64,000 nucleotides of DNA from an uncultured Candidatus Saccharibacteria bacterium (GTDB lineage: Bacteria; Patescibacteriota; Minisyncoccia; UBA6257; 2-01-FULL-56-20), in contig CAYHXC010000005.1 of assembly GCA_964360585.1 (NCBI GenBank), positions 7,947-71,946 of the forward strand, read 5' to 3'. The stretch's first letter is position 1; every line of letters begins with the position of its first letter. The translations under genes were made by a program, and so were the position numbers. The notes beneath the pieces are model-generated. The model did not search any database. It worked only from the letters and a program-made list of their open reading frames with translations, and was not told the origin of the DNA. Below are positions 25,346 through 64,000 of this stretch, in pieces.

Positions 25346-25374
25346 TTCGGAGAAGAATTGAACGAGCGGAAGGG

Positions 25375-46675: not shown

Positions 46676-48064
46676 ATGCCCCGCAAGAAAAATATAACTC
46701 AAGCGACGCTGTGGGGAACGGATAGTGGAAAGGGTATAGGGGATAGTGAAAAGAAGACACGCAAGAGGAAGCGTGAAAGTGATAAGTCTCTATCCACTAA
46801 ACCCTATCCACTAACCCCTGCCCAAATCTTCACCGTCGGCGGCTATCTTTTTCATCTTGGGAAATTGGTCGGTGCAGAAGAAGTTATTGTGCAAGGCGAG
46901 ATCTCGGGATTTAAGAATCATCAGGTCGGTGGATTTTTTTCGCTCAAGGATACTGATGGCGATGGACTTTTGAAGTGCTATATGCCGCCGCGATTTTTAA
47001 GTCAGGTTGGTTTTCCCCTCGAGGACGGACTTTTAGTTCAGGTGAGAGGTGTGGCCAGTATCTATAAACCGCGCGGGGAATTGAGCTTTACGGTCCAGAG
47101 TATTTCTTTGGTTGGCGACGGTTCAATTCGACAAGCTTACGAGGCTCTGAAGAAAAAATTAGAAGACGAGGGACTTTTTTTACGCAAACGAGAACTGCCC
47201 GAGTTTATTGAGCGGATTGGATTTATTACGGCGAAGAGCGGTGAGGTGATTCACGATTTTCAGAGAAATTTGAAATCCCTGGGTTTTGCGGTCGACTTGC
47301 TGGATGTTCGTGTACAAGGAAGTGATGCGCCGCCGCAGATTGTTCAAGCGATCGAAACTTTGAACAAATTAAAATCCGTCGAGGTCATTATCATTGCGCG
47401 TGGTGGAGGAAGTTTAGAAGACTTACAAGCCTTCAACGATGAGCGGGTGGCGCGGGCGATTTTCAAATCAGAGATTCCGATTTTGGCCTCAATTGGTCAC
47501 GATCGTGATGTGCCGATTGCGAGTCTAGTTTCTGATCTCTATGTTTCAACACCATCAATAGCCGCCATTACCATGAATCGCTCTTGGGAGCGATTGGAGT
47601 CGCAGTTGCCGCTTCTTGTGTCTGATTTGGTATATGGTTTTGAAAATGTTCTAGATATAAAGAAAAGCGCCACGAGAACTGAACTCAATAAACTTCTTTT
47701 CGGTATGGAACGACTTCTGCGGATTCCTCGTGAGTTTCGATCGCGACTGAAACTCGAACTATTTAAGCTCGGTCGAGAAAAAGACGAATTAAAACTGAGG
47801 ACTCGCCGAGGTCTCACGACTGTAGTACAATCGTTTGAGATTCGGATACGCGAGATTATGGCGATACTCAAGTCATGTTCCAGCTATTTTCAAGGAGTGA
47901 GTCCTGAACGAAATCTCCATCTGGGATACAGCATCGTGCTCGGCTCCGATGGCCGAGTAGTCAAAAAGACCGACGACCTGACGATCGGAGAAAAAGTTTC
48001 TACACTTCTTGCGGACGGATCATTTATTTCAAAAGTGGAACAAAAACAAAAGAAAACCTCATGA
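46676..48064 (+). CDS. xseA: Exodeoxyribonuclease VII large subunit
   Basis: OB-fold N-terminus (IFTVGGYL...VQGEISGF) and catalytic region (IIIARGGGSLEDLQAFNDERVARAIF). It carries an unusual Lys-rich N-terminal extension. Confidence 0.85.
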   Translation: MPRKKNITQATLWGTDSGKGIGDSEKKTRKRKRESDKSLSTKPYPLTPAQIFTVGGYLFHLGKLVGAEEVIVQGEISGFKNHQVGGFFSLKDTDGDGLLKCYMPPRFLSQVGFPLEDGLLVQVRGVASIYKPRGELSFTVQSISLVGDGSIRQAYEALKKKLEDEGLFLRKRELPEFIERIGFITAKSGEVIHDFQRNLKSLGFAVDLLDVRVQGSDAPPQIVQAIETLNKLKSVEVIIIARGGGSLEDLQAFNDERVARAIFKSEIPILASIGHDRDVPIASLVSDLYVSTPSIAAITMNRSWERLESQLPLLVSDLVYGFENVLDIKKSATRTELNKLLFGMERLLRIPREFRSRLKLELFKLGREKDELKLRTRRGLTTVVQSFEIRIREIMAILKSCSSYFQGVSPERNLHLGYSIVLGSDGRVVKKTDDLTIGEKVSTLLADGSFISKVEQKQKKTS

Positions 48065-48326
48065 CCAGAGCTCATCTCAAAAATAGCTCCGCCGCGTTTC
48101 CCTCTATTTTGTCTGTCCACCACGACGCGACGAGGAGACATATGCCAGAGCATAGGCTTCGAGGAGTAACAAAGGTGGCGGACAAAATAGAGAGAACCGA
48201 GGGGATAGGAATTATTGCCGCGGAGACGGTGTTGCTACGTCCTCACTGTACCGCTAGTACACTTTCGGACTGGCGCCTTGTCTCCCTCGCCAATAATTCT
48301 CTATCGCGGCAGGATATATTTTTAAG
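48061..48326 (+). repeat. Structured repeat (candidate ncRNA), copy A, inserted between xseA and xseB
   Basis: Starts at ATGACCAGAGCTCATCTCAAAAATAGCTCCG, overlapping the xseA stop, and ends ...TCTCTATCGCGGCAGGATATA. It is homologous to 63660-64000 with compensatory base changes in a long-range stem (48103-48121 with 48174-48193). Confidence 0.6.
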
Positions 48327-48560
48327 ATGAACTCTAGCAAAGATAAAAAAATAAACATCAACGAATCGCTTTCCAAGCTGGAGCAGATTACGCGCTGGTT
48401 CGACACCCAGAAGGAAGTGGATGTGGAAGTGGGTATGGCCAAGGTGAAAGAAGGCGCGGAGCTGGTGAGGGATTTGGAAAAACGCCTCGCGGAAATCGAT
48501 AACGAGTTCCGAGAACTGAAGAAAAATCTGGGCATCGAGAACGTAGAAGATGAAGCATGA
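48327..48560 (+). CDS. xseB: Exodeoxyribonuclease VII small subunit
   Basis: LSKLEQITRWFDTQKEVDVEVGMAKVKEGAELVRDLEKRLAEIDNEFRELKK. Confidence 0.8.
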   Translation: MNSSKDKKININESLSKLEQITRWFDTQKEVDVEVGMAKVKEGAELVRDLEKRLAEIDNEFRELKKNLGIENVEDEA

Positions 48561-49216
48561 TCGAAAGTCTGGTCGAGAAAATCAGTTTTCTCGTGGCGGC
48601 CTACGGTCCTTGGGGCGTTTTTGCCGTTGCGCTTCTCGAAGAGATGATTGCTCCGATTCCTTCGACTCTTACCACGGTGGGAGCGGGTTTTATTCTCCTC
48701 ACCTCGTATGTTGATCTCGGATCGGTGATCGTGCCCGCTCTTCTTTTTGTGGCTGTGCCGACGGCCCTCGGTATGACAATTGGCGGGCTTCTGCCCTACG
48801 GTATCGGTTACTACGGAGGGAATATGATTATCCATCGTTGGGGTAAATGGTTTGGCATCACCGAGCAGTCAGTGGAGAAGATGAAGCGATATTTTAATCG
48901 AGGGCACGCGGACGAAGTTGTTCTGGCCGCTCTCCGAGCCGTTCCGATTTTTCCCAACTCACTTACCTCGGGCGTTTGCGGTTTGGTGCATTATCCGCTA
49001 CGGCCGTTTCTTCTCTATAGTTTTCTTGGAGGAACTGTTCGCGCGCTCGTTCTTGGCCTCATCGGCTGGTCAATGGGAGAGGCCTATGTCGAATATGGCG
49101 GACTATTAAATGCCTTTGAAAACATCTTCCTCCTTATTGCCATTCTTTTGATCGCGGCCATTCTCGTCTATCTTTTCCGAAAAAAACGCACACGCCATGG
49201 AGAAATCATATCGTGA
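48557..49216 (+). CDS. DedA/TVP38-family membrane protein
   Basis: Multi-TM protein with a DedA-like GxxxM/L...PxxP region. Confidence 0.6.
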   Translation: MIESLVEKISFLVAAYGPWGVFAVALLEEMIAPIPSTLTTVGAGFILLTSYVDLGSVIVPALLFVAVPTALGMTIGGLLPYGIGYYGGNMIIHRWGKWFGITEQSVEKMKRYFNRGHADEVVLAALRAVPIFPNSLTSGVCGLVHYPLRPFLLYSFLGGTVRALVLGLIGWSMGEAYVEYGGLLNAFENIFLLIAILLIAAILVYLFRKKRTRHGEIIS

Positions 49217-49763
49217 AGCGGTTCGCCGCATCACACAGGGAGAAGTTGGCATCATTCCGACCGATACGCTCTATGGCGTAGTGTGTGATGCCCGAAATGC
49301 AAAAGCGGTTCAAAAAATATACACGATCCGCAAGCGTGATCCCCAAAAGCCGTGCATCATCCTTATCGGGGAAGCGAGCCAGATAAAACAGTTCGGTATC
49401 AATGTAGACGGAAAAACCACAACCATTCTTAAAAAAGTCTGGCCCGGGAAGGTCAGTGTTGTTTTGCCCTGCCCACTCAAGAAATTTCAGTATCTTCATC
49501 GGGGCACGAACAGTTTGGCCTTTCGTCTGCCGAAAAATAAAAAGCTAGCGGAGTTTTTGAAAAAAACTGGGCCGCTCGTTGCTCCCAGCGCCAACCTCGA
49601 AGGCACGCCGCCGGCCACAACGATTTCGGAGGCAAGACAATACTTTGGCTCTCATGTTGATTTTTATATAACCGCCGGCCGAAAACAGTCTCTCGCCTCA
49701 ACAGTCGTTGCGATTCAAGATGGAAAAATACGAATCATACGCGAAGGCGCCAAAAAGTTGTAA
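49197..49763 (+). CDS. tsaC: L-threonylcarbamoyladenylate synthase (YrdC/Sua5 domain)
   Basis: VGIIPTDTLYGVVCDARNAKAVQKIYTIKRRDPQKPCIIL. Confidence 0.85.
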   Translation: MEKSYREAVRRITQGEVGIIPTDTLYGVVCDARNAKAVQKIYTIRKRDPQKPCIILIGEASQIKQFGINVDGKTTTILKKVWPGKVSVVLPCPLKKFQYLHRGTNSLAFRLPKNKKLAEFLKKTGPLVAPSANLEGTPPATTISEARQYFGSHVDFYITAGRKQSLASTVVAIQDGKIRIIREGAKKL

Positions 49764-49837
49764 ACATCGTTTCTTTCTTAAACGAGCTATACTAAAAGTA
49801 GTGGGATTTTAAAAAAACCAGCGAAGGAGGTGCGGTA

Positions 49838-50233
49838 ATGGCAGGACGTGGCCTTAGCGATGTGCGGCTGTTCAGTTTGTATATCGTTTCGGGACTCCTC
49901 ATGACGTATTTCCTCACGCCCAACGTTCACAGCGTCATGATTCCGCCCGCTGAGACTCCTCGTTTGAGTCCAACGATCAGCGTGCTTTCGGCGATTTCGA
50001 AACGCGAGGAGCTGTCCCATCGGGAGCACGGAAAGTACTTGGGATGCGACAGGAACTGCGAGGTTATTTTTGAGCTCAAGATCCCGGCGGGCATTCGAGC
50101 GGCAGTGCGCAGTCCTTTCCCATTCTGCTCATACGCCCTTACTGTCGAAGACGAAATTGGGCGTGAAGTTGTGCGGGCACATTCGGATCGTTGTCCATTT
50201 CCGTCACCCTTCATTTTAAACTCGGAGCAGTAA
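49838..50233 (+). CDS. Hypothetical protein
   Basis: 131-aa ORF with an N-terminal hydrophobic segment. Confidence 0.35.
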   Translation: MAGRGLSDVRLFSLYIVSGLLMTYFLTPNVHSVMIPPAETPRLSPTISVLSAISKREELSHREHGKYLGCDRNCEVIFELKIPAGIRAAVRSPFPFCSYALTVEDEIGREVVRAHSDRCPFPSPFILNSEQ

Positions 50234-50310
50234 TGCGCCGAGTTTTTTCATCACTGTAGTTTTCCACAGTTTTATTTGACCCACCAACCTTTCGATGATT
50301 TAATAAGATC

Positions 50311-51279
50311 ATGCGTAAACTATTATTAACAGGAGCGTTATTTTCTATGATTGTGGCGCCCGCCCTTGGGGAAGAGGTAAAAATGACGGAAGGTACCAGG
50401 ATTCCAGCACCAGCGGCTGTTCGTGAGATGAAGGGTGAGATAAAAGAAGCTCGCCAAGGGATGCACGAAGAGGTGAAGAACGTTCAAGAAGAACGACATG
50501 AAAATGTTCAAGAGGTTCGAAGTGAGGGCAGGAAGAATGTCCGAGAAATGGTGAAGGATGCCAAGACTAGTTCCTCAACAAAGCCAGCTGATCTCATGCG
50601 GAGAATTCAGGGCGAAGTCCGGGAGCGTCGTGAAGATATTAAAGAAATTCGGGGAGAGGCTCGCAAAGAAATTGAAGTGGCTCGAACCAAGTTTCTCGAT
50701 GAGATTAAAGAGAAACGGGAGTTCCTCAAGACCACTTTAGAAAAAAATCGTGAAGCTTTGGCAAAAAGGTTAGAAACTTTTAAAGATGAGCGAAAGAAGA
50801 AAGTAGCGGAGAATGTGGGTGAGAATCTCGACAAAGCCAACGAAGCAGCGACGAATAATCTCAGTAAAGCACTAGATCAGTTGGCGGAAGTTTTGGGAAG
50901 AATTTCTTCTCGAGCTGATAAGGCTGGTAGTCGCGGACTCGACATTGTTTCGGTGAAGGTGGAAATCGGAAATGCCAGTAGCGCCATAACAACAGCCCGG
51001 AATGCTGTAATTGCCCAGGCGGCCAAGACCTATCCGATTGCCATTTCTGCCGAGGCAAAATTGAAGAGCGATCTCTCTGATGTCCGAAAAAAGTTACACG
51101 ACGATATGGAGAAAGTTCGGGAATTGGTAAAGACAGCCCGGGAAGCGGTGCATAAAGCGGCCACCACCCTGGCTCAGATTCCTCGAGTCGATGAAGCCGG
51201 TACGCCGACATCAACAGCCACCTCGACCGCGAACACCACGACAACGGCCTCGTCAACTGCCACCACAACCAGCCAGTAA
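50311..51279 (+). CDS. Secreted coiled-coil repeat protein with a Thr/Ser-rich C-terminus
   Basis: Signal peptide MRKLLLTGALFSMIVAPALG, then repetitive E/K/R-rich heptads and a TSTATSTANTTTTASSTATTTSQ tail. Confidence 0.5.
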   Translation: MRKLLLTGALFSMIVAPALGEEVKMTEGTRIPAPAAVREMKGEIKEARQGMHEEVKNVQEERHENVQEVRSEGRKNVREMVKDAKTSSSTKPADLMRRIQGEVRERREDIKEIRGEARKEIEVARTKFLDEIKEKREFLKTTLEKNREALAKRLETFKDERKKKVAENVGENLDKANEAATNNLSKALDQLAEVLGRISSRADKAGSRGLDIVSVKVEIGNASSAITTARNAVIAQAAKTYPIAISAEAKLKSDLSDVRKKLHDDMEKVRELVKTAREAVHKAATTLAQIPRVDEAGTPTSTATSTANTTTTASSTATTTSQ

Positions 51280-51300
51280 TAGAAAAATTACTTTACAAAC

Positions 51301-51546
51301 ATGAACAGCAACAAAGGAACCCTCATAACTATCATCGTCATCATCGCTGTAATTCTCTTGGGAATCGTTTTGTGGTGGTCGCAGATGAGCAATCTTCCGG
51401 GACCGCTCGACACCGGAACACCGGTCAGCGAAGTTCCGCCAGCCGATGATACAACCGCGAGAATCCAGGCAGATCTGAATCAGGTTGATGTCGGCGATAC
51501 GAATCAAGAGATGCAGGATATTGATGCCGACATCAATACTCTCTAG
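51301..51546 (+). CDS. Hypothetical small membrane-anchored acidic protein
   Basis: One N-terminal TM helix followed by a D/E-rich tail. Confidence 0.4.
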   Translation: MNSNKGTLITIIVIIAVILLGIVLWWSQMSNLPGPLDTGTPVSEVPPADDTTARIQADLNQVDVGDTNQEMQDIDADINTL

Positions 51547-51628
51547 CCGCCACACATCTCGCGATAGCGAACGAGTATAACGGAGGCCAGGCGCCAGTTC
51601 TGAGTTTTTTTCTTTTCTTAAAAATCCA

Positions 51629-53035
51629 ATGGCCTCCATTCACAAAAAAGTAAAAATTGTAGCCACGATTGGTCCAGCGAGCGACAGCGAAGAAAAAATT
51701 GAACGTTTGGTCCGCGCTGGTGTAAATGTCTTTCGCCTGAACTTTGCTCATCGGGAGTGGGACTACTTCGCTTTAATTATTCGCCGGATTCGCGCTGTCG
51801 AAAAACGCGTTGGCTACCCAGTGGCCATTCTCGGAGATGTGCCGGGACCGAAAATTCGAATTGGTTTTGTCGACGAGGGTGTCGAGCTGCGAACGGGAAA
51901 TCGTCTTCGCATTGTTGGCCAGTCGGTCATCGGCTCAAAGGAAATTATCTCGGTTAATTTTCCGAGTATTTTGAAACACATCAAAAAGGGAACGGAGATA
52001 TATCTTGGCGATGGCGTTACTAAACTGGTTGCTGAACGGATCGATGAGGAGGGGGTGATTGCGGTGGTAACCGGCGGGGGAGCGCTCCGTTCGCGCATGG
52101 GCTTTTCAGCGCAGGGAATGGCCCTCGATGCTTTTTCCTTAAACACCCGAGACCGATCGTTTATCCGGAAGGCGGCCCATGCAAAACTTGATTTTCTGGG
52201 CGTTTCTTTTGTGCAAACACCCCAGGATATCGCCCGGGTCAAGAAGCTTCTGCCTAAAAAAGACGGACCGCTCGTTATCGCGAAAATCGAAACCGCTAAA
52301 GCGGTCGAGCATATCAACTCAATTCTCGACTTTGCGGACGGCCTCATGATCGCGCGCGGCGATCTTGGTTTTTCTATTCCGCTTTCCGAATTGCCGTTTG
52401 TGCAGAAAGAACTTATTCGGTTGTGCTTGAAGCGCGCCAAGCCGGTCATTACCGCGACCCAGATGCTGGAATCAATGATTCACAATCATTTTCCAACGCG
52501 GGCCGAAGTGAGCGATGTGGCCAATGCTATTTTAGATGGTACCGACGCGGTAATGCTTTCGGCCGAAACCGCTCTCGGAGACTTTCCGGAGGAAACCGTG
52601 CGCATTATGGCCCACATCATTCGCGGGAGCGCGCCGCGGGTGAAGTCGCCGATTTTCGAGGAGGAAAAAGGCGCAACTCATGCCGCGACTGCCTCGGCTG
52701 TTCGCGTGGCGAATCAGATTGGCGCGCGTCTCATCATCGCTTTTACCGAAGGTGGCGCGACCGCGCGGCAGATCGCCCGCCATCGCAGCTCGCAGTCAAT
52801 TATTGCGCTTTCTCCTCGTGAAACAACACTGCATAAGCTGGCGTTAAGCTGGGGAGTGTACGGATTCAAAACGAAAACAACAAGTAATATTGATCATCTC
52901 CTCCTGCAGGCTCGTACCGTAGCTCGCACCAACAAAATTACACCGCTCAAAAAAGGGGAAAGTTTTGTGATTGCGGCAGGAGTGCCGTTCGGAAAAAGCG
53001 GCAGTACGAATTTGATCTTAATCGAAAAAGTGTAG
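51629..53035 (+). CDS. pyk: Pyruvate kinase
   Basis: KIVATIGPASDSEEKIERLVRAGVNVFRLNFAH...MIARGDLG. Confidence 0.9.
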   Translation: MASIHKKVKIVATIGPASDSEEKIERLVRAGVNVFRLNFAHREWDYFALIIRRIRAVEKRVGYPVAILGDVPGPKIRIGFVDEGVELRTGNRLRIVGQSVIGSKEIISVNFPSILKHIKKGTEIYLGDGVTKLVAERIDEEGVIAVVTGGGALRSRMGFSAQGMALDAFSLNTRDRSFIRKAAHAKLDFLGVSFVQTPQDIARVKKLLPKKDGPLVIAKIETAKAVEHINSILDFADGLMIARGDLGFSIPLSELPFVQKELIRLCLKRAKPVITATQMLESMIHNHFPTRAEVSDVANAILDGTDAVMLSAETALGDFPEETVRIMAHIIRGSAPRVKSPIFEEEKGATHAATASAVRVANQIGARLIIAFTEGGATARQIARHRSSQSIIALSPRETTLHKLALSWGVYGFKTKTTSNIDHLLLQARTVARTNKITPLKKGESFVIAAGVPFGKSGSTNLILIEKV

Positions 53036-53037
53036 GC

Positions 53038-54210
53038 GTGTTTAAAATCCTCAAAGAATCATCAACCTCACGTGCCCGTTGCGGCGTGATTGAAACCCCT
53101 CATGGCCTTATAGAAACTCCGGCCTATACAATTGTGGGGACGCACGCCGAAGTACGGTGTTTAACGCCAGAAGATCTTATTGCCACGAAGACTCAGCTCA
53201 TCATTGCGAATACCTATCATCTCTGGCGAGAGCTAGGAGACGAGGGATTAGCCAGCTATCCCGGCCTTCATGAGGCTATGGACTGGTCTGGGCCGATTAT
53301 GACCGATTCAGGCGGGTTCCAGGTCTTCAGTCTGGGGGCGGCTCGAGAGAAAAAAATGGGCAAGGTAAAAAAAGGAGAGGATGGTGGCAGTTGGGAAGGA
53401 GAAAATGTAGTTCGAGTAACCGACTCCGGCGTTTATTTTATGGAGGACGGCGAGGAACAGTATCTCGATGCCGAGCTTTCGATGCGGATCCAGGAACAGC
53501 TCGGCGCGGACATTATTGTCGCTTTTGATGAGCCGACCTCGCCACTCCATGATTATGAGTACACCAAGCAGTCTTTGGTTCGGACGCACCGCTGGGCGGA
53601 ACGTTCGCTCGAAGCGAAAACTTCGAACCAATTGATCTACGGTGTCGTTCAGGGCGGTTCGTTTCCGGATTTGCGACAAGAGAGCGCGGAATTTATTGGG
53701 AACTTGGCTTTTGACGGTTTTGCGATTGGTGGAGCATTTGGCGATTCCTTTGGCAGTAAAAAAACGGAGATGATTACGGAACTTGAAGCCTCGATTCCAT
53801 TTTTACCGAAAGATCGCCCGCGGCATCTTCTGGGGATTGGTCGCGTTGAGGATTTGTTTCTAGGGGTAGAGGCGGGGATCGATACCTTTGATTGTGTGAT
53901 TCCGACCCGCGAAGCTCGCCACGGTTCAATCTGGACGAGAGAAGGCCGGTTTGATCTCAAGCGTTCAGTTTTTGAGGAGGATACGAGTCCGCTCGATCCT
54001 TCCTGTTCGTGCCCAGTGTGTCTCGACGAAACAATCAATCGCAAGACCTTACGCCAGTTATTTAAAGATAAAAATCCAGAAGCCGGTCGTTTAGCCACCA
54101 TCCACAACGTTTCTTTTTTCAATCAACTTATGGAAGATATCCGCGAAGGAATCAAGAATGACAATTTAGGAGAAGTTAAAAAAGAATATCTGCGAGGAGA
54201 AGAAAAATAA
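53038..54210 (+). CDS. tgt: Queuine tRNA-ribosyltransferase
   Basis: TDSGGFQVFSL with the zinc site CSCPVC...H; GTG start. Confidence 0.85.
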   Translation: MFKILKESSTSRARCGVIETPHGLIETPAYTIVGTHAEVRCLTPEDLIATKTQLIIANTYHLWRELGDEGLASYPGLHEAMDWSGPIMTDSGGFQVFSLGAAREKKMGKVKKGEDGGSWEGENVVRVTDSGVYFMEDGEEQYLDAELSMRIQEQLGADIIVAFDEPTSPLHDYEYTKQSLVRTHRWAERSLEAKTSNQLIYGVVQGGSFPDLRQESAEFIGNLAFDGFAIGGAFGDSFGSKKTEMITELEASIPFLPKDRPRHLLGIGRVEDLFLGVEAGIDTFDCVIPTREARHGSIWTREGRFDLKRSVFEEDTSPLDPSCSCPVCLDETINRKTLRQLFKDKNPEAGRLATIHNVSFFNQLMEDIREGIKNDNLGEVKKEYLRGEEK

Positions 54211-54245
54211 AAAGCCCGAGAAAATTTTCCCAGGCCTAAAGATAA

Positions 54246-54449
54246 TTATCGAAAATCACGCGGAGCAGGGAAGCGGAACGTCTCATTGTCCGCCTGGCAC
54301 TTTTCGAAGTCCGCTTTGAGATTTTGGAGCGCAATTCGAAGCAGTAAATTTCGTGTTGCTACCCCCATATTTCTCTGAAGTTCCTCAACGTGAGGGATGG
54401 AATCCAGAGCGAGATCCAACTGAATGCGTATTTTTCCCGCCTTAGTCAT
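54246..54449 (-). CDS. Putative ribbon-helix-helix (CopG/Arc-like) DNA-binding protein
   Basis: KIRIQLDLALDSIPHVEELQRNMGVATRNLLLRIALQNL, an RHH-like pattern. Confidence 0.4.
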   Translation of the reverse strand: MTKAGKIRIQLDLALDSIPHVEELQRNMGVATRNLLLRIALQNLKADFEKCQADNETFRFPAPRDFR

Positions 54450-54550
54450 GATTTCTCCTTAAGAAGTGACTGTGTTGCTTCCTAGTTCATACCACCTCTT
54501 ATAGTGAGAGTAAATAGTAGAAAATAGGGGAAATAAAAAGCCCGACGAGG

Positions 54551-55633: not shown

Positions 55634-56449
55634 ATGCAGAAGACAGATACATTCAAAAAAATAGTTTGGGATTACTATAAAAAACACGGGCGGAAGATGC
55701 CGTGGCGAGAAACAAGCGACCCCTATATGATTTTTGTTTCCGAGGTGATGTTGCAACAGACCCAGGTTGATCGCGTGAAACCGAAGTACGAAGCATTTAT
55801 ATTTTTTTTTCCCAATTTCAGGAAGTTGGCAGGGGCGCCGCTTCCAAAACTCTATGGTGCTTGGCAAGGCTTAGGATACAATCGTCGCGCGCTTGGCCTG
55901 AAGAAAAGTGCTCAAAAGGTCACGGCGGAATACGGAGGGAAACTTCCTCAAACGCTCGAGGAGTTAGAGGCACTGCCTGGCATTGGTCCGGCGACAGCCG
56001 CTTCGATTACCGCCTTTGCTTTTAATCAGCCCGTCGTTTTTATTGAAACAAATATTCGTCGGGTTTTTCTCCACCATTTTTTTGCCGACAAGAAAAATGT
56101 CGATGATGCAAAGATCAGAAAGCTTGTAGAAATAACGCTGGACAAGAAAAATCCACGCGAGTGGTACTGGGCTTTGATGGACTATGGGAGCTATCTGGCC
56201 AAAACTTTGCCGAAGAATCCAAATCAGCGAAGCCGTCACTATGCAAAACAGAGCGCATTTAAAGGGTCAAAACGCGAAGCTCGTGGCGCCATTATTCGAT
56301 TTTTACTTAAGGAAAAAACTGGCACCAGTACGAACATCATCAAAAATTTGAAGTTAGACACGGACATAGTTCGAGCCGCTCTTCATGACTTAGAAAAGGA
56401 AAATGTTGTCGAAAAAGTGCGAGGCCTCTACAAACTCAAGGAAATATAG
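55634..56449 (+). CDS. HhH-GPD superfamily DNA glycosylase (MutY/Nth-like)
   Basis: Helix-hairpin-helix LPGIGPATAA plus the catalytic Asp region. The Fe-S cluster cysteines are absent. Confidence 0.65.
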   Translation: MQKTDTFKKIVWDYYKKHGRKMPWRETSDPYMIFVSEVMLQQTQVDRVKPKYEAFIFFFPNFRKLAGAPLPKLYGAWQGLGYNRRALGLKKSAQKVTAEYGGKLPQTLEELEALPGIGPATAASITAFAFNQPVVFIETNIRRVFLHHFFADKKNVDDAKIRKLVEITLDKKNPREWYWALMDYGSYLAKTLPKNPNQRSRHYAKQSAFKGSKREARGAIIRFLLKEKTGTSTNIIKNLKLDTDIVRAALHDLEKENVVEKVRGLYKLKEI

Positions 56450-56475
56450 TAGAAAGAGATATAAAAGAGATATAC

Positions 56476-57246
56476 ATGAAAGAGACTTCCTGGGAGCGAT
56501 CGGCCGAATGGTACGATGAGCATCTGAAAAAAGATGACACCTATCAGCGGAAGGTAATCCTGCCCCAATTACTCCGGGCGATGGACATTAAAAAAGGCGA
56601 AATGATTCTCGACCTGGCTTGTGGCTCGGGATTTTTCTCGATGGAGTTTATGAAAGCCGGCGCACATCTCGTGGGCGTCGATGCCTCGAAAACGCTTATT
56701 GCTCTTGCCAAAAAAGCCGTTCCCCAAGGGCAGTTCTATGTTGGCTCTTCGGACAAGTTATCACTTATTCCGAATCAGTCGATTGATAAAGTTGTCGTTG
56801 TTCTAGCACTGCAGAACATCGAGAATGTCGCGTCAACGCTTAAGGAATGTGCCCGTGTTTTAAAACCAAGCGGACAAACGTACATCGTTTTAAACCATCC
56901 GGCCTTCCGGAATCCGCAGGAAAGCGACTGGGGTTGGGATGAGTCTAAGAAGGTACAGTATCGTCGAATTGATCGATACTTAAGCGAGTCGAAGGTGAAA
57001 ATTCAGATGCATCCAGGCGACGCTCCGAGTGAGTATACAATCTCTTTCCATCGACCACTCCAATTTTATTTTAAAGCCTTACGGACAAGTGGTTTTCTCA
57101 CACGTTCAGTCGAGGAGTGGGAGTCACATAAAAAGAGCCAGACCGGACCGCGCTCCATGGCAGAAAATCGGGCTCGAAAAGAAATTCCAGTTTTTCTTTT
57201 TCTAGAGGCCGTGAAACATCCACTGTCGATTTACTTTTTGAAGTAA
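56476..57246 (+). CDS. Class I SAM-dependent methyltransferase
   Basis: Motif I ILDLACGSGFFS with an acidic loop VGVDAS. Confidence 0.75.
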   Translation: MKETSWERSAEWYDEHLKKDDTYQRKVILPQLLRAMDIKKGEMILDLACGSGFFSMEFMKAGAHLVGVDASKTLIALAKKAVPQGQFYVGSSDKLSLIPNQSIDKVVVVLALQNIENVASTLKECARVLKPSGQTYIVLNHPAFRNPQESDWGWDESKKVQYRRIDRYLSESKVKIQMHPGDAPSEYTISFHRPLQFYFKALRTSGFLTRSVEEWESHKKSQTGPRSMAENRARKEIPVFLFLEAVKHPLSIYFLK

Positions 57247-58253
57247 TTAATACCAATAGCTTTATGGACTCGGTCTAAAGTTTCCCGAGCAACCTTACGG
57301 GCATTGGCCGTCCCGGCTTCTAAAATATCCATAACTTCCGATTTTCGTTTAGCATAACTTGCGCGGCGTTCGCGAATCGGATCGAAAAGGTCGTTCAAGA
57401 TTCCAACTAAGCGTTCTTTGATAACCACATCGCCAACACCACCTTTCTTATACTGTTTTTTCAGAGCTTCCAAGCCTTTTTTATCTGTATCAAAAATATC
57501 TAAGTACATAAAAACGACATTGCCTTCGAGATGGCCGGGGTCGCTTACGTGAATCCGGGTTGGATCGGTGTACATTTTCATTACTTTCTTTTTCACTGTG
57601 GCGGCGTCATCAGAAAGATTGATCGCGTTACCCAAAGACTTAGACATTTTTTCTTTGCCATCAACACCAGGAAGACGTGGCATTGAGGAAAGTTGTGCTT
57701 TAGGAACGACCAGGGTGTTTCCGTAAAGCGCATTAAACTTTTTCACGATATCGCGGGTGAGTTCGATAACTGGTAGTTGGTCTTCGCCAACCGGCACAAG
57801 ATCGGCGCCGAACGCAGTAATGTCCGCGGCCTGGCTCACCGGATAAACCAAGAATCCCATAGGCAGTTCTTTAGTAAAACCGCGCTGGCGGATCTCGTTT
57901 TTGATCGTCGGATTCTGCTGGAGTTGAGCGAGGGTGGTGAGGTTCAGCAAGTAAAGTGCCAGTTCGGCAATTTCTGGAATCTGGGACTGGAGAAAAAATG
58001 TGGTCTTCTTTGGATCAATACCGACCGCCAAGTAATCGAGCATCACTTCAAACACATTGGCGCTCACTTTTTCCGGTGTCTTGAAATTATCAGTCAGAGC
58101 CTGCATGTCGGCGATCATGACGAACTGTTCGTAGTCGTTTTGTAAGTTGACGCGATTCTGAAGCGAACCCACAAAATGGCCGAGATGGAGCGGTCCAGTC
58201 GGGCGATCGCCAGTTAAGATACGTTTCTTTTGCATATGGAACAATCCTAGCAC
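57231..58253 (-). CDS. trpS: Tryptophanyl-tRNA synthetase
   Basis: HIGH-like TGDRPTGPLHLGHFVG and KMSKS (KMSKSLGN). Confidence 0.9.
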   Translation of the reverse strand: MLGLFHMQKKRILTGDRPTGPLHLGHFVGSLQNRVNLQNDYEQFVMIADMQALTDNFKTPEKVSANVFEVMLDYLAVGIDPKKTTFFLQSQIPEIAELALYLLNLTTLAQLQQNPTIKNEIRQRGFTKELPMGFLVYPVSQAADITAFGADLVPVGEDQLPVIELTRDIVKKFNALYGNTLVVPKAQLSSMPRLPGVDGKEKMSKSLGNAINLSDDAATVKKKVMKMYTDPTRIHVSDPGHLEGNVVFMYLDIFDTDKKGLEALKKQYKKGGVGDVVIKERLVGILNDLFDPIRERRASYAKRKSEVMDILEAGTANARKVARETLDRVHKAIGINYFKK

Positions 58254-58811
58254 GATGAAGAAGCGGTCTCAACCAGATAGTATAAGTTCGATAATTTTCA
58301 TTTACGGATTGTGATACCTTGAAGATTGTTTTTGATTTTTGCCTGCATCGAACTTTCACTACCTGGTCAAGAAACTGATTTTGAATGAATCTCTACGGGC
58401 TTCCGCCCGCAGTTTTATGCGGGTAATAAAAAACTTCACACGAAGTGAAGTTGATCTAGGGAGAGATAAATCTGCGGATGACCACGAGTTCCCCATGCGC
58501 TTCCTTAAGAAGCTTGACTGATGTTAATTCGCCGGCAGGATTGCTGAGGAGAAAGTGTTGGATCGTTTCGATGCATTCCCATTCAGCCCGGTCGGATAGA
58601 GTGGCATCGAGACGAGCAGCAGAGACTATCCAATCGGTGCTATTTTTCTTTCCAACGAGGATTACGAGATATGACATCCTCTCTCCTTAGAGATACTAAG
58701 GGAGAGAGTAATCGGAAATGACCTTTGGGGCAAGATGAAATGCCAGAAGACAATCACTTGCCAGGCTTAACTTTTTGGGTACTATACAACTAGCTATTCT
58801 ATCAAGAGAAG

Positions 58812-59120
58812 GTGGGAAGGTGGTTTGTGGCACACCGTAATCGTTATAGTGAGTACACGCCAATCAGAATCGAGAGCATTCCAGAACGCCTTAGAATTTT
58901 TCTTGTTCGTCACGGAATGGATCTTTCCAAGATCCGAACCATCAGAGATCTCATGACACTGGATAACGGGCGGGTTGGTGTGCGCCGATGGCCGAACCAG
59001 GGTCGGGTTTTGAGAATCAACTGTCAGTACCTCAAGTTGGTAAGAAAGCCGACGAAGAAGTTGACTACACTGATTCAAAACAGTCTTCGGGTACGACAGC
59101 CCAAAAAGAAGATTACTTAG
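58812..59120 (+). CDS. Hypothetical basic protein
   Basis: 102-aa ORF; weak support. Confidence 0.3.
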   Translation: MGRWFVAHRNRYSEYTPIRIESIPERLRIFLVRHGMDLSKIRTIRDLMTLDNGRVGVRRWPNQGRVLRINCQYLKLVRKPTKKLTTLIQNSLRVRQPKKKIT

Positions 59121-59241
59121 GAGGACAAAGTCCTCCTTTTTTATTGCAACGCTGGACGGACGTTTTAAGATAAATTAGAATCTCGGATACATGCGCGGGT
59201 GGCCCTTCGGCGGCGCGCTCAGGACAACAGTTTATAGATAT

Positions 59242-59325
59242 GCGCGGGTGGCGAAACTGGCAGACGCACTACCTTGAGGTGGTAGCGCCCGCAAGGGCTT
59301 GCAGGTTCAACTCCTGTCCCGCGCA
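59242..59325 (+). tRNA. tRNA-Leu (anticodon GAG), long variable arm
   Basis: GTGGCGAAACTGGCAGACGC D-arm, anticodon arm CTACC-TTGAGGT-GGTAG, a long variable arm, T-arm and acceptor GCGCGGG/CCCGCGC. Confidence 0.8.
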
Positions 59326-59822
59326 CACATGAAAATTGTCACACCTTCTGGTGTAGCAATTTTTATATGCGGGACAGGAGTTGAACGAGAAGGTGGGGTC
59401 GGGAGGAGGTGTCGTCCTCCCGTTTCGGAATTTCTCAAAACCGACCGCGTGCCGCCTTAGCTTCAGCAGTGGCGCAGGGTTTTGAGAACGCAGACCGAAG
59501 GTCGAGTAGTGAAATTTCCTCTCCCGCGCACACTTGAAATAATTTCTAGAAAACGGTAATTTAAAGTTTAACGCACTCAACGGGGAGGTAGTTGTGGCTA
59601 GAAAGCGCAGGGCTCCGAAAAACCTGGCGAAGATTGCGGCCAAGGCACGGCATCATCTCGAGCAACGAGGCAGAGAACCGAATATCGGCTGGCGGCCCCC
59701 GCCCAAGCCCATCACAAAGCGAAGCGCTTCCGAAACTAGTTACTAGCTCTTTTCTCTGAATCCCTTTTCCGCCGTCTCCGGATGCGCGGATTTTTATTTC
59801 TCCTAATTTTAATTCTTGGGAC

Positions 59823-60038
59823 TTGCGGTTGGCTGTGTGTGGGGTAATAATTGGAAGAGTATGTTCCCTTGCTCCTATGGAGGAATCAATGAAAAAGTGG
59901 ATCTTCGACCATGCCTTGCTTCTCATGATCGTTTTCGCAGTCGTTCTTTTCGGGGGCATACTGATCACCCTGGATCACGTGAATCGCGACCGGGATCCCG
60001 AACAGATTATCAAGAGTTCCAACCGCCATCCACTATGA
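59823..60038 (+). CDS. Hypothetical small membrane protein
   Basis: One TM helix (LLLMIVFAVVLFGGILI). Confidence 0.3.
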   Translation: MRLAVCGVIIGRVCSLAPMEESMKKWIFDHALLLMIVFAVVLFGGILITLDHVNRDRDPEQIIKSSNRHPL

Positions 60039-60085
60039 GATGTGCGGTTTTTTAATCGAAAGATTCCCAAAAAGAAATGAAGCTC

Positions 60086-60112
60086 CACGGGCTGAAGCCC
60101 GTGGTTTCTTAG
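60086..60112 (+). terminator. Rho-independent terminator (CCACGGGCTGAAGCCCGTGG plus a U-run)
   Basis: GC hairpin followed by TTTCTT. Confidence 0.55.
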
Positions 60113-60129
60113 AGCTCAAGCTTCGCTTG

Positions 60130-60222
60130 TCCGCATGTCATTGCGCCTGCCCGCCTCTGGAGGGAGCAAGGCGAAGTAATCTAGATTGCCACGTCGCTAC
60201 GCTCCTCGCAATGACATGCGGA
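60130..60222. repeat. Nested-palindrome MITE-like repeat, copy E (extended TIR TCCGCATGTCATTGCG / CGCAATGACATGCGGA)
   Basis: Left TIR plus GGAGGGAG box, as in copy B. The right half GATTGCCACGTCGCTACGCTCCTCGCAATGAC is the reverse complement of copy C's left half. Confidence 0.7.
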
Positions 60223-60299
60223 TCTACTTCATTCCCGGGCTGAAAGCCTGGGGTTTTGCGGTGGAGAATAAAAAATCTCCGTCGGTTTCCCGATGGAGA

Positions 60300-60887
60300 T
60301 TATGACCTTTCCTCCTCAATCAGTTCCCGCATCTTTCTGCGAAAGCGGGCAATGATGGATCCCACGCTTCCGACCGGCTCGCCGAGGAACTCGGCAATGT
60401 CCTTATACGGGGTAGTGAGTTTACAGGTTTTTGTCAGGCTGTCGAGCGTCAGGCGCTGTTTCCCTCGTTTCTCGATATTTCTCTCGCAAAGCGCGATCTG
60501 ATCTTGCAGTGTTTGTGCGAAGCAAGAACTCAGGGAAACGCGTGACAAGTCTTCCGTAAGCCGGACGATCCTGCGTTGATAGTCCGCGATGTGCTGATCC
60601 ACGACCGCAACAGCATGCTCGAGTTCGCGCAGTTTTGACTTGCGCGCGGCTACGGCCTCCGCGAGCTCACAAAGACCATCCGCAATTTTCTGCGGATCCC
60701 GCTTTGTATACTTTCGGAGAAAGACCAACTCCTCGGGACTTAACGGTAGAGCATCGGGATGGAGGAGTTTCATGACGACCCGGGCCGAGCCGGGAAAAAT
60801 CAATTCTCCAACCTTCCGTAAGTCAAAAACTTCCTTTGTCTTGGCCTCAAGCGGATGTATTCTCTCGCCCTCAATCACCTTCCTCAT
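60300..60887 (-). CDS. Sigma-70 region-4-like HTH protein (possible sigma factor or regulator)
   Basis: C-terminal LTTPYKDIAEFLGEPVGSVGSIIARFRRKMRE resembles a region 4 HTH. Start set at the internal Met (MRKVIEGERIH). Confidence 0.45.
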   Translation of the reverse strand: MRKVIEGERIHPLEAKTKEVFDLRKVGELIFPGSARVVMKLLHPDALPLSPEELVFLRKYTKRDPQKIADGLCELAEAVAARKSKLRELEHAVAVVDQHIADYQRRIVRLTEDLSRVSLSSCFAQTLQDQIALCERNIEKRGKQRLTLDSLTKTCKLTTPYKDIAEFLGEPVGSVGSIIARFRRKMRELIEEERS

Positions 60888-60980
60888 GGGATTCCCTCCA
60901 GTGAATTTACTGTTAGAGAGACTAGCAGTTCCCCAGGATCCTTTCAAGATTCCGAATTTTTGAGTATAAAGATAGATGTT

Positions 60981-61526
60981 ATGACTCAACGCGATACAAA
61001 AACAAAAATAGGCAAAAGAAAAACAGTGTTCACCGGCGCTTTATACACAGTGAGTCAGGCGCGCATAGTTTTACTGAGCGGACGGACGGGGATATTAGAA
61101 ACAATTTCACGTCACCCGACTGTTGATATTGTGGCCATACATGACGATGACAAAATCCTTCTCAACTGCGAGTATCGGCCAAAATATAAAAAGCGAGTCT
61201 GGCGGTTGCCGGGCGGGACGGTGGAGAAAGGGGAGACCTGGCGGGCGGCGGCAGAAAGAGAACTTCAAGAAGAAACTGGATTTAAAGCAAAAAGACTGAC
61301 TCTTTTTCATACCGTACACATGGGACAGACGATCGACTGGCCGCGTCGCGCCTATCTTGGCGAAGGACTTATTCCTTCAAAACTGCCGAATGACGACGAA
61401 GAGGATATTCGGATTGAGTTCTTAACACTCAAAGAGGCGATGCGGCTTATTGAACGAGGGGAAATTCGTCATGACTTTACGGAGTACCTGATCTGGAAGT
61501 TATTTCTTAAAAAGAAGCTGAAATAG
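60981..61526 (+). CDS. NUDIX hydrolase (ADP-ribose pyrophosphatase-like)
   Basis: LPGGTVEKGETWRAAAERELQEETG NUDIX box. Start at the internal ATG 60981, which avoids overlap with the divergent gene. Confidence 0.75.
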   Translation: MTQRDTKTKIGKRKTVFTGALYTVSQARIVLLSGRTGILETISRHPTVDIVAIHDDDKILLNCEYRPKYKKRVWRLPGGTVEKGETWRAAAERELQEETGFKAKRLTLFHTVHMGQTIDWPRRAYLGEGLIPSKLPNDDEEDIRIEFLTLKEAMRLIERGEIRHDFTEYLIWKLFLKKKLK

Positions 61527-61987
61527 GTTGTTTCTTAGCGAAATAGAAGGGTAGAGGGGGCTTATTTTAGGACACATTTTAGGGCCCTTGACAAATTAGG
61601 CGGTTTCGACTAACGTATGCCTGTAAGTAGCTATTTGAGCCGCAACAGATTGACGTGCTATCTCGCAGGAGATGGCCCCAGCAGCCCCATAAAATTAGGC
61701 AGTACCGGGGCAGAAAGGTGTATCATGCACGCCCGTCACGGTCCGACGGACCAGTTTTCCAATGTCATTTTTTGCGACAACACCGGCCAGGACGCGATCA
61801 GCTGCCGCGGCGGCGCCGACCAATACAACACGTAGGTCGCCGGCATCCGTGACGCAGGACTCAGTGCTACGTCACAGCTGTTTTACTCTGAAAAATAAAG
61901 CTGCGACGTAAATCAAAAAAAGGTTGGGGGGCTTCGGCCCCCCATACCGACCCACACAAACCCATATACACTTTTGTATATGGGTCA

Positions 61988-62665
61988 TTGCTTTTTAAGG
62001 GGATTTTAAATTTGTATTTTTCTCATGCTACGATAAGTATCGTGCAGTATATTATCGGTATTGACGAAGTGGGGCGGGGTCCTTTGGCCGGGCCGGTTGT
62101 GGTCGCGGCAGTAGTTTTACCGCGTGGCTTTCGCTTGCCGAAGGAGATGGGTGCGCTCAAAGACTCGAAACAGCTTTCGAAACAACGTCGCGAAGTTTGG
62201 TGTGAGTATTTTATTACCTGTCCCGAGGTTTCGTTCAGTGTTTCGCGGGTGTATCCGAATCGGATTGATCGCTTGAATATCTCCGGTGCAGCCAATCAGG
62301 CGGCGCTCAGGGCTTATCAAAAACTATTGAGTCGAGAACATATTCATTCATCGCATCGCGTTATTTTAGATGGTGGGCTCTATCTTGGTACCAAGAAAAA
62401 AAGTTTCGAGTACGGCGCGAAAACAATCATTAAGGGTGACGAGAAACACCCGCCAATTATGATTGCTTCGATTATCGCGAAAGTGGTTCGGGATAGATAC
62501 ATGACCAAACTAGCCAAAAAATATCCAGAATATGGCTTTGAAGAGCACAAAGGGTATGGCACACGCGAGCACCGAAAAGTCCTGAAAAAATACGGCCCAA
62601 CTGAAGCCCATCGGTTGACCTTTTTGAGTAAATATCCTACTATTTGGCTTATTAAGGAATCATAA
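61988..62665 (+). CDS. rnhB: Ribonuclease HII
   Basis: IIGIDEVGRGPLAGPVVVAAVVL. The true start is probably the in-frame GTG near 62043. Confidence 0.8.
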   Translation: MLFKGILNLYFSHATISIVQYIIGIDEVGRGPLAGPVVVAAVVLPRGFRLPKEMGALKDSKQLSKQRREVWCEYFITCPEVSFSVSRVYPNRIDRLNISGAANQAALRAYQKLLSREHIHSSHRVILDGGLYLGTKKKSFEYGAKTIIKGDEKHPPIMIASIIAKVVRDRYMTKLAKKYPEYGFEEHKGYGTREHRKVLKKYGPTEAHRLTFLSKYPTIWLIKES

Positions 62666-62667
62666 CT

Positions 62668-62823
62668 ATGGGTGGCGTACCAATAAAACATCATACCAAA
62701 GGCAAAGTAGGCCGACGGCGTTCGCATATGGCCCTGAAGAAGCAGCGGATCCTCCAGTGCGCAAACTGCGGCGGTCCGAAGCTGGCTCATCGTGTTTGTC
62801 CGCAGTGCGGAAATGATCGCTAG
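62668..62823 (+). CDS. rpmF: 50S ribosomal protein L32
   Basis: MGGVPIKHHTKGKVGRRRSHMALKKQRILQCANCGGPKLAHRVCPQCG. At 51 aa it is below the track cutoff. Confidence 0.8.
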   Translation: MGGVPIKHHTKGKVGRRRSHMALKKQRILQCANCGGPKLAHRVCPQCGNDR

Positions 62824-62857
62824 GAGCATGGTGGATGGAGCGAAGGGTTGAAAAATT

Positions 62858-63214
62858 ATGTTTCGCTTTGAATCTCTTGATATTTGGAAGCTAGCGACTC
62901 AGTACGCAAAAAGTTGCTACACTATTGCGGGCACTTTTCCTAATCACGAAAAATTCTCATTAGCTGATCAGCTACGCCGGGCGGCTATTTCAATTTCAAA
63001 TAACATAGCCGAGGGATCGGTAGACTCACCAGCAGTTTTTAAGAAGTATCTATCGATTGCCATCGGTTCAACTCTGGAAACGGTCAATATCTTGAATTTT
63101 AGCTGTGAAATAGGTTACATTTCATTAGAGGAGAAACAAGAAATGTATCGGAAAGCGGAAGAGTTAATACCTAAAATAAGAGCTTTTTCACGGATGTTAC
63201 ACGCTAAGCCCTAA
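62858..63214 (+). CDS. Four-helix-bundle protein (23S rRNA intervening-sequence protein family)
   Basis: [18 protein letters not shown]...[20 protein letters not shown]...[11 protein letters not shown] matches that family's consensus. Confidence 0.7.
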
Positions 63215-63237
63215 GCACCCTGCTCCTTGCTACTACT

Positions 63238-63663
63238 ATGGCCACTCGACACCTTCTCCGCGCAGTTATTCTCCAGACGCTCTATGAGTGGGATTTTTAC
63301 CAGGGGAAGAAGGATATTACCGACATTCTTGATCGCAACATGAAGGAGTTCGCGCCAGATGTGGACGAACCCGAGTTTGCCTGGAAGATTTTGCACGGCG
63401 TGGCCGGACATTTGCGCGAGATCGATACGAAGATCGAAGAGGTGGCGCCGGAGTGGCCGCTCGCGCGCATTGCCCTGATTGACCGGAATATTTTGCGTCT
63501 CGGGCTCTATGAGCTCATGTATGCCAATCCGGAAGAGGTGCCGCCCAAGGTGGCTATTAATGAAGCTATTGAACTCGCGAAAAACTATGGCGGACCGAAC
63601 GCCGGACGATTCATAAACGGCGTCCTCGGAACCGTTTTCAAGAAAACGCAGGAAACGACATGA
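63238..63663 (+). CDS. nusB: Transcription antitermination factor NusB
   Basis: [17 protein letters not shown]...[17 protein letters not shown]...[14 protein letters not shown]. Confidence 0.85.
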
Positions 63664-64000
63664 CCGGAACTCATCTCAAAAATAGCTCCGTCGCGTTCTC
63701 CTCTGATTTGCCCGTTCATCACGGCACGACCTGCCGGCAGGCAGGCAGGCGAGGAGGCATAGGCCAAAGTCTAGGCTCCGACCTGCGCTTCGCCGAAGGC
63801 TCTCGCCTCGCTGTAGCTATGGCGAAGCGGGTCGGCAAGGCGAGGAAGTAACACAGATGACGGGCGAATCAGAAAGAACCGAAAGGATAGGAAGTATAGC
63901 TACGGATACAGTGTTGCTGCGTTCTCAACGTACCTTTGGGTACACCTTCGAACTAGTGCCTCCTCTCCATAGCTATACTTCTCTATCGCGACAGGATATA
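63660..64000 (+). repeat. Structured repeat (candidate ncRNA), copy B, 3' of nusB; it carries a nested copy of the GC-rich family-3 repeat and runs to the window edge
   Basis: Starts at ATGACCGGAACTCATCTCAAAAATAGCTCCG, overlapping the nusB stop, and ends at TCTCTATCGCGACAGGATATA at the window edge. Stem 63702-63720 pairs with 63856-63873, with compensatory changes relative to copy A. Confidence 0.6.

Follow-up and report, generated by a model that had tools for sequence, protein, structure and literature searches.

What sort of sequence is the folded repeat that separates xseA from xseB, and stands again behind nusB, in a 64,000-nucleotide stretch of contig CAYHXC010000005.1 (positions 7,947 to 71,946; hereafter the window), and how can it be tolerated within operons? 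The host is an uncultivated groundwater bacterium of the Patescibacteria (Candidate Phyla Radiation, CPR), and a preliminary description of its DNA had proposed a non-coding RNA or an RNA-based mobile element over a span (48061-64000) that consists mostly of ordinary genes between two copies of the repeat. Our analysis indicates that the repeat is most probably a non-autonomous palindromic mobile DNA element of about 271 bp, of the MITE type (miniature inverted-repeat transposable element), which has spread in one Patescibacteria genome, is present in at least one other metagenome-assembled genome (MAG) and may be tolerated in operons by translational read-through. Several features of a MITE are found, namely a small size, no transposase gene, conserved terminal inverted repeats, dispersed copies, and filled as opposed to empty sites.

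Seven copies (A to G) were recovered, three of them (A, B and G) within the window. Copy A, a full element of 271 nt (48066-48336, plus strand; its limits are the start and end of similarity among copies A-G), lies between xseA (46676-48064; Pfam Exonuc_VII_L) and xseB (48327-48560, plus strand), whose first codons, ATG AAC TCT A.., are element sequence. Copy B (63665-64000, plus strand), about 355 nt long with its nested inserts, lies between nusB (63238-63663; Pfam NusB) and the RNase III gene rnc (Pfam Ribonuclease_3 and dsrm). It ends 18 nt past the window, in the contig that continues beyond the window end and supplies both the last part of the copy (L001 5667-6020) and rnc (L001 6011-6724), which is started by the 3' ATG of copy B. 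Copy G, a short relative of 164 nt that had escaped the preliminary description (21527-21690, plus strand), lies between rsmH and an ftsL-like open reading frame (ORF) and combines the common termini with a distinct single-hairpin interior. Of the other four, copy F was found between rpmC (L29) and rpsQ (S17) in the ribosomal protein operon (L022), copy D between an 88-aa ORF on its 5' side and a methyltransferase gene on its 3' side (L011, Hainich H51 groundwater), copy E, truncated and lacking the usual 5' half, in L013 (after ruvC) and L023 from the same Hainich H51 samples as D, and copy C between a membrane-protein gene and uvrB, 40 nt past a TAG stop (L009, from a MAG labelled Candidatus Saccharibacteria). 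All seven are co-directional with their flanking genes. Proteins adjoining A, D and F have accessions that are close neighbours in one "Patescibacteria group bacterium" MAG at NCBI, to which proteins MEK7187430.1, MEK7187705.1 and MEK7188022.1 belong; copies A, B, D, F and G lie in this single MAG, probably together with the truncated copy E, and copy C belongs to a different one. The left contexts of copy E differed between two assemblies from the same well, with ruvC in one (L013 380-520) and an unrelated ORF in the other (L023 1-130) meeting at the junction TTTCGTGCGGCTTTGATAGGTTCTAG, and could stem from rearrangement in a strain, from a second copy or from a chimeric assembly.

Copies A and B, which lie where they had been reported, are 77.6% identical over 294 aligned positions (48061-48338 versus 63660-64000) and share a 5' box (CTCATCTCAAAAATAGCTCCG), an internal box (GAACCGA..GGATAGGAA) and a 3' box (TCTCTATCGCGRCAGGATATA). 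Identity is 75-78% among the copies inside one MAG and 61-64% between these and copy C. The 5' ATGACC indeed overlaps the TGA of xseA in copy A and that of nusB in copy B; a start exactly at a stop codon is nevertheless not a family property, since C, D and F differ. The 3' end had been drawn too short: the repeat runs on through TTTTTAAGATGA(R)(Y)TC(Y)A, covering the start codon and codons 2-3 of xseB and rnc, and the part of copy B past the window (...GACAGGATATATTTTTAAGATGAGTTCC in L001) matches the continuation of copy A. The element thus spans the downstream start codon and the next five bases, of xseB in A and of rnc in B.

Scanning of species-representative genome contigs with the 5' box returned copy C and three chance matches, and scanning of metagenome contigs with the 3' box returned D, E, B again (L014) and two chance matches. 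Element ORF peptides searched in a protein collection led to copy F and to the second context of E, all from the same groundwater well, and a profile search (nhmmer) revealed copy G in the window itself. In viral contigs the strict box had no match and the loose box 36 single chance matches, none of them upheld by nhmmer; BLAST against plasmids and phages gave no match, and the nhmmer profile detected no element copies in any of the relatives' loci obtained. A candidate solo terminal repeat (L011 9070-9087) was dropped, being without a partner.

The ends are what all copies have in common. A nearly invariant 28-bp terminal inverted repeat, TAGAACTCATCTCAAAAATAGCTCCG...CAGGATATATTTTTRAGATGAGTTCTA, with an end motif also written TAGAACTCATCTCAAAAATAGCTCC (and its complement), gives the layout 5' TA-GAACTCATCTCAAAAATAGCTCCGYCGCG ... 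CGCGRCAGGATATATTTTTRAGATGAGTTC-TA 3', which encloses two long hairpin arms; similarity among copies starts at TAGAAC and stops at GTTCTA. In copy A the inverted repeat forms helix 1, in which the 5' arm (48066-48095, plus strand) pairs with the 3' arm (48306-48336, plus strand); the latter holds the ATG now serving xseB, and its CGCGGCAGGATATATTTTTAAGATGAACTCTA is kept in all copies regardless of the downstream gene. Twenty of the 28 pairs never vary among five copies, and four show compensatory change. The termini of copy G, TAGAACTTATCTTAAAAAT...ATTTTTAAGATAAGTTCCA, carry TTAT/ATAA in place of TCAT/ATGA, likewise a compensatory change, and its TAG is the stop codon of rsmH. The outer helix is a sequence-invariant inverted repeat shared with a 164-nt relative of different interior, which argues against an RNA element proper. 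The dispersed copies have constant ends and variable interiors; nested insertions and truncation, both seen here, are usual among repeats.

Filled and empty sites could be compared at two junctions. In three relatives with equal gene order (L017, L019 and L021), whose XseA is the nearest at 61-68% identity, xseA overlaps xseB by 8, 11 and 14 nt and the element is absent, bearing out the earlier expectation that the two genes are normally adjacent or overlapping. Four S17-related contigs (L024-L027, with two distinct junction sequences) likewise lack the element, the L29 stop being followed after 7 nt by the ATGACC of S17. The closest S17 relatives read L29 stop, ACCACTC or ACCATTC, then ATGACCGAA..., and copy F has the identical left flank, ...AATAGACCATTCATG-CC, directly followed by TAGAACTCATC. 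This match identifies the 5' ATG in F as the original S17 start codon, and the ATGACG, ATGACA and ATGAAT of the relatives identify the 5' ATG in A as the original xseB start; in neither copy is it part of the element, as had been supposed. The element is an insertion at the xseA/xseB and L29/S17 junctions. Copies A and F each sit 5 nt into the downstream gene, with the old ATG stranded on the 5' side of the element and an in-frame ATG of its 3' arm as the current start. The N-terminus of XseB reads MNSSKDKK here versus MNKDKK, MTDKQKK and MTKNNK in relatives, and that of S17 reads MSSNTTITKRRL versus MTETKEIVKRRL; no alternative xseB start was found upstream of the conserved ESLSKLEQ. By analogy, we infer that the element in B replaces the rnc start in the same manner.

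At their outermost bases copies C, D and F have TA...TA, copy A has CA...TA, copy B CG...CA and copy G TA...CA. A target-site duplication is one possible source of the terminal TA, and duplications of TA are the kind made by IS630/Tc1-mariner-type enzymes; the outer TA...TA may just as well belong to the inverted repeat as its end. In copy B the A-to-G and T-to-C changes of the outer pair compensate each other, which suggests that pairing matters up to the last base. If TA was duplicated, the empty sites to be expected are plausible and in frame throughout, namely CATGAC-TA-GCAAAGAT (MTSKDKK) for A, CATGAC-TA-AAACATCA (MTKTSTD) for B, TTCATGCC-TA-ACACAACC for F and ACG-TA-AAAGACAATGACC for G, where the TA would be part of a TAA stop. 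ATGA was rejected as the target duplication of the family, its 3' occurrence pairing with the TCAT of the 5' arm in every copy and the 5' ATG(A) being host sequence in A and F. Insertion took place exactly 5 nt past an ATG in A and F, and likewise in B should its 5' ATG be the former rnc start; this spacing may reflect survivorship, only in-frame and start-restoring insertions being viable, or a target preference.

The whole element folds into a Y, in which the terminal closing helix surrounds two long hairpin arms. In copy A, arm 1 (48096-48197, plus strand) is formed by the helix 48096-48121/48174-48197 with a small capping hairpin (48134-48160), and arm 2 (48204-48305, plus strand) by the helices 48204-48227/48280-48305, 48231-48242/48267-48277 and 48247-48252/48256-48261. 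RNAalifold on five full copies yielded 102 pairs, 35 of them with compensatory double changes, compared with 7-11 when partners were slid and 15.7 +/- 2.6 when shuffled (none of 500 shuffles reached 35); paired cells amounted to 92.3% versus 35-44% with slid partners. The long-range covarying helix recognised earlier corresponds to helix 2 in arm 1 (24 pairs, 11 with double compensatory changes, 95% of cells paired), helix 6 in arm 2 has 12 double changes in 19 pairs, and arm 2 of copy C has a wholly different stem sequence of the same shape. Conservation is thus uneven, the terminal helix being near-invariant in sequence whereas the inner helices covary heavily. Pairing in the interior is clearly maintained, and candidate causes are a function of the transcript in stability or processing, transposition through a single-stranded DNA intermediate, and hairpin-templated repair of quasi-palindromes.

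Such covariation, which is very strong, invites the explanation that the repeat is a functional structured RNA (a cis-acting leader, a processing or stability element or a small RNA gene) with a selected fold and copies arisen by duplication, the helix sequestering the AUG and so regulating xseB, rnc and S17. The AUG of the downstream gene does sit in the closing helix, every copy is co-oriented with transcription, the conserved G-U pairs of helix 7 fall on the transcribed strand, and 94-98% of the pairing is kept at 22-25% divergence between copies. The fold of copy A is far from random as plus-strand RNA (z-score -6.5), but an equally good one is obtained as single-stranded DNA (-7.1), with -6.0 for minus-strand RNA; the fold of copy G has a z-score of -9.2. 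The wobble pairs (26 G-U versus 15 A-C cells) favour the plus strand weakly, too weakly to decide a strand assignment. Other observations speak for DNA: the element is missing at the matching junctions of relatives, its ends are invariant in sequence and not just in pairing, a short variant (G) has a different interior, and truncated and nested copies exist. The downstream genes are moreover functionally unrelated, and in C, D and E the 3' AUG opens merely a 12-23-codon ORF. On this balance an RNA primarily selected for its fold appears distinctly unlikely; the structure with compensatory changes stands, while its function as an RNA is unproven by covariation in what is also a DNA palindrome. 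A secondary role at the RNA level would be compatible with an inserted mobile element.

The Rfam search that had been proposed as a check matched no described RNA family (Rfam 15; group I and II introns, retron RNA, riboswitches and ribozymes included). At the gathering threshold, the whole window contained tRNAs alone, and at E<=10 copies A and B gave chance-level hits only (snoRNA-like, and DUF3800-VIII in the nested GC hairpin with 24 bits versus a cutoff of 40 bits). No reverse transcriptase or other enzyme gene adjoins the element. Among the forms of mobility first considered, an origin from an insertion sequence (IS) is supported, and nothing points to RNA-based mobility, an intron, an intein or a retron.

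Mobilisation as single-stranded DNA by an HUH-type enzyme, in the manner of IS200/IS605-like palindrome-associated transposable elements (PATEs) or of REPIN/RAYT systems, with recognition of the hairpins and insertion 3' of a short target such as ATGAC without duplication, would account for interior pairing kept throughout and for the strong fold as single-stranded DNA. The uniform orientation of the copies would also fit, as it could reflect the direction of replication, nearly all window genes lying on one strand, and so would the left flank ATG(A)CC common to A, B and F and the tie of a second repeat family of this genome to ATGAA (see below). However, IS200/IS605 elements and REPINs lack long inverted repeats that reach their ends, which here pair over 28 bp, ATGAC is missing from the left flank in C, D and G, and the flank shared by A and F is explained by host start codons, since relatives have ATGAC there. 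With no Y1 or RAYT gene seen in the DNA examined, we judge this route very unlikely.

The element is also crossed by an open frame. In copy A a stop-free frame of 89 codons (48061-48330, plus strand) begins at the former xseB ATG, in overlap with the TGA of xseA, and ends at a TGA overlapping the present xseB ATG; it contains no stop, versus four and five in the other two frames. Through A, F and D the frame has 0 stops versus 3-8 in other frames, and the frame ending ...SLSRQDIFLR-TGA is open over 47-104 codons in every copy. In A and F the ORF begins with the ATG of the old start, closes in the ATGA that marks the new start of xseB or S17 and is exactly 89 codons long in both. Copy B has two ORFs of 63 and 51 codons, the second starting with ATG and closing in an ATGA with rnc, and in both B and D a 51-codon ATG ORF fills the 3' half. 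In a simple simulation B, D, E and F all kept their last 50 codons open with P ~0.025, and the openness of the through frame looks non-random.

The amino acid sequence, in turn, is not what is preserved. Substitutions are spread evenly over codon positions (11/13/12 for B versus D, 18/15/18 for another pair), synonymous codon changes number 4 and non-synonymous ones 22 between B and D (2-7 versus 22-35 across comparisons, a ratio of about six-fold), and in copy A two 1-nt indels on opposite strands of one stem put the 14 codons between them out of frame. Shared N-terminal residues came to about 16 rather than the 25 or so first reported, and Pfam had no match for the element ORF. The even codon positions, the frame shifts and the lack of a Pfam match together indicate that no protein sequence is conserved, in agreement with the initial view that this is no coding gene. 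A gene for a small protein of ~89 aa (51 aa in B and D) whose translation is coupled to that of its neighbours would explain the exact 89-codon ORFs, the matching place of the 51-codon ones, the common C-terminal SLSRQDIFLR and the ORF calls of gene callers, but with the conserved C-terminus being simply the invariant inverted repeat and relatives among 5.8 billion proteins being other copies from the same well alone, it can be regarded as largely refuted.

We propose instead that the element, presumably moved by an enzyme encoded elsewhere, acts as an operon-compatible spacer that would be nearly neutral in tightly coupled operons, even before the essential S17 gene. The closing helix would bury the downstream gene's new AUG; ribosomes that come through from the upstream gene, or that start at the old AUG, would translate the stop-free frame and thereby melt that helix, terminate at the UGA within AUGA and re-initiate on xseB, rnc or S17. 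Such a relay of ribosomes through the element into xseB, rnc and S17 is our reading of its frame and junctions. Donation of a Shine-Dalgarno motif by the element was considered and weakened as an explanation: an AGGA stands 12 nt from the downstream ATG, and most host genes are without such a motif. Most of the 27 window genes, checked over 30 nt upstream, had no Shine-Dalgarno motif, and many starts overlap the prior stop as ATGA; translation initiation in this host seems to rely little on Shine-Dalgarno pairing. No promoter-like site, integration host factor (IHF) site or terminator was evident with the element.

Several points weigh against a MITE-type element with a relay frame. The ~130 kb of genome examined yielded no transposase and no autonomous element bearing these inverted repeats, and the window is without a transposase. 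The TA...TA ends also pair, so that a duplication is inseparable from the inverted repeat, and they are altered in A, B and G. No presence/absence polymorphism was seen between close strains, all Hainich assemblies carrying copy A, and the element may have been inactive for long. Pairs are kept at 94-98% in copies merely 75-78% identical, and cut-and-paste transposition that acts on the ends alone leaves the interior compensation unexplained. Finally, what speaks for a coupling role of the open frame is stop-codon statistics on a few related copies.

Smaller repeats are nested in the element. The GC-rich insertion that had been noticed in copy B is a 63-nt hairpin (63783-63845, plus strand) with 86% identity over 44 nt to window positions 25366-25409; it is stop-free and preserves the reading frame. 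Copy B has a second GC-rich insert of 20 nt (63731-63750, plus strand), of which a 16-nt version occupies the equivalent position in copy D. [quoted passage not shown]

Several further families of palindromic inserts occur at operon junctions in this genome. A second family resembling MITEs, ~129 nt long and bounded by the inverted repeat TCCCCNCACCTAAT...ATTAGGTGNGGGGA, has copies in the window at 23638-23768, 23773-23898, 26529-26656, 38076-38207, 39888-40018 and 43810-43938, the first two in tandem (23638-23898), and in L022 at 4873-5000, 6883-7011 and 10658-10787. Most copies have ATGAA on both sides, and one has TTGA/ATTGA, which resembles a genuine target duplication of 4-5 bp on [A/T]TGA(A), in other words at stop/start overlaps and start codons; in several cases the 3' ATGAA starts the downstream gene (CofD-like at 38208, ABC ATPase, bipA, L29 and L18). 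Elsewhere in the ribosomal protein operon of this MAG (L022 1-16363), strongly folding inserts of 110-370 nt occupy nearly every junction, versus gaps of 2-12 nt in the relative L024. One insert family, TTACCCCCCCACCAACCTCGTGAC...GTCATAAAGGTTGGTGGGGGGGTG, was found at S19/L22, L22/S3 and S8/L6, another, TCACGAATAATGCGAAT...ATTCGCATTATTAGCGATTAC, at L2/S19, L5/S8 and L15/SecY, and several inserts are called as hypothetical proteins of 50-68 aa. A relative from well H41 (GCA_964358025.1; L026 816-1140) has its own palindromic insert, GTTAGAAAC...TTTCTAACGGGATGAAAGCC, between L16 and L29, which resembles the L23/L2 insert of L022; junction elements are hence not confined to one genome.

A tentative and rather unlikely extension of the MITE interpretation is that these families form a guild of palindromic elements homing to start codons or stop/start overlaps (ATGAC-TA in the case of the present element, ATGAA or TTGA in that of the 129-nt family), each rebuilding the start codon, keeping a stop-free relay frame and being moved by a site-specific enzyme. 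Targeting instead of survivorship would then explain why A, B and F lie 5 nt after an ATG, and the fold would be part of transposition or of the relay.

Shorter dispersed repeats (5981-6030/46230-46279, 9312-9347/60118-60153 and 9370-9394/46194-46218) flank intergenic regions of the window and read TTAGATTGC..TCGAG..CTCGA..CTCGCAATGACA and GTCATTGCGCCTGCCCG; they are probably another inverted-repeat element family. The 3' half of a tRNA-Thr gene (9643-9681) is repeated at 9708-9746 (87% identical) and 11663-11701 (74%), neither repeat being called a tRNA by ARAGORN, and these repeats (window 9609-9746 and 11663-11701) may have been left by an element that integrated at the tRNA gene.

For annotation, gene callers list these elements as hypothetical proteins of 51-105 aa, which inflates CPR protein catalogues, and the true N-termini of the xseB, rnc and S17 products in this host are element-derived. 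A reduced genome of ~1 Mb with overlapping genes tolerates many mobile inserts, one of them in the start of an essential ribosomal protein gene, and start-codon replacement combined with an open relay frame is a pointer to how such inserts are tolerated. As a caution on method, covariation in a palindromic repeat alone does not mark an RNA gene.

Literature searches found no account of such repeats in Patescibacteria/CPR; the comparisons below are with other bacteria. The Correia or nemis elements of Neisseria are non-coding, 100-300 bp long, with ~26-bp terminal inverted repeats, a TA duplication, long stem-loops, transcribed intergenic sites and size variants. The element described here is alike in size, in terminal inverted repeats possibly flanked by TA, in its stem-loop fold, in its transcribed intergenic sites and in having size variants with shared ends. 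It differs in having no sequence similarity to them, in an interior that is a Y-shaped double hairpin with heavy compensatory change, and in its position in the first codons, where it replaces the start codon and has no evident promoter or IHF site.

PATEs of IS200/IS605 type and REPINs fit less well, the ends here forming a 28-bp inverted repeat and the ATG(A)CC flank occurring in A, B and F alone. More generally, MITEs have been described with inverted repeats, direct repeats and long RNA stem-loops, and repeats may be fused to the 5' or 3' ends of genes; Rickettsia palindromic elements are tolerated in coding sequence by staying in frame (PMC3184786). The likeness to these and to MITE-ORF fusions lies in a palindromic sequence kept in frame within a coding sequence. 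Those insertions, however, add an internal peptide, whereas the present one exchanges the outermost N-terminal residues (M-S-S or M-N-S-S) and keeps two cistrons apart. REP2 repeats of Neisseria provide the downstream gene with a ribosome-binding site and with its ATG (PMC3184786), the latter being what our element shares; REP2 in contrast has no terminal inverted repeats and brings a promoter, while the element is without a promoter-like site in a host mostly without Shine-Dalgarno motifs.

Mycobacterial interspersed repetitive units (MIRUs) lie between the genes of a polycistron, have ORFs overlapping their neighbours and are missing from the corresponding site of a related species (PMC3184786). 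The element is likewise an intercistronic repeat with an empty homologous site and a small ORF whose ends overlap the flanking genes, and MIRUs offer the closest functional analogy to its ATGA-ending frame. The spacer trait, an ORF running through the repeat and abutting or overlapping the neighbours, is present in A, F and B as a likeness of function and not of membership: MIRUs are unrelated in sequence, 40-100 bp long and often tandem, with imperfect inverted repeats and no large conserved fold. Each single feature of the element therefore has a precedent, and it is not a new RNA class; what is new is the sequence family, its host lineage and the combination of features.

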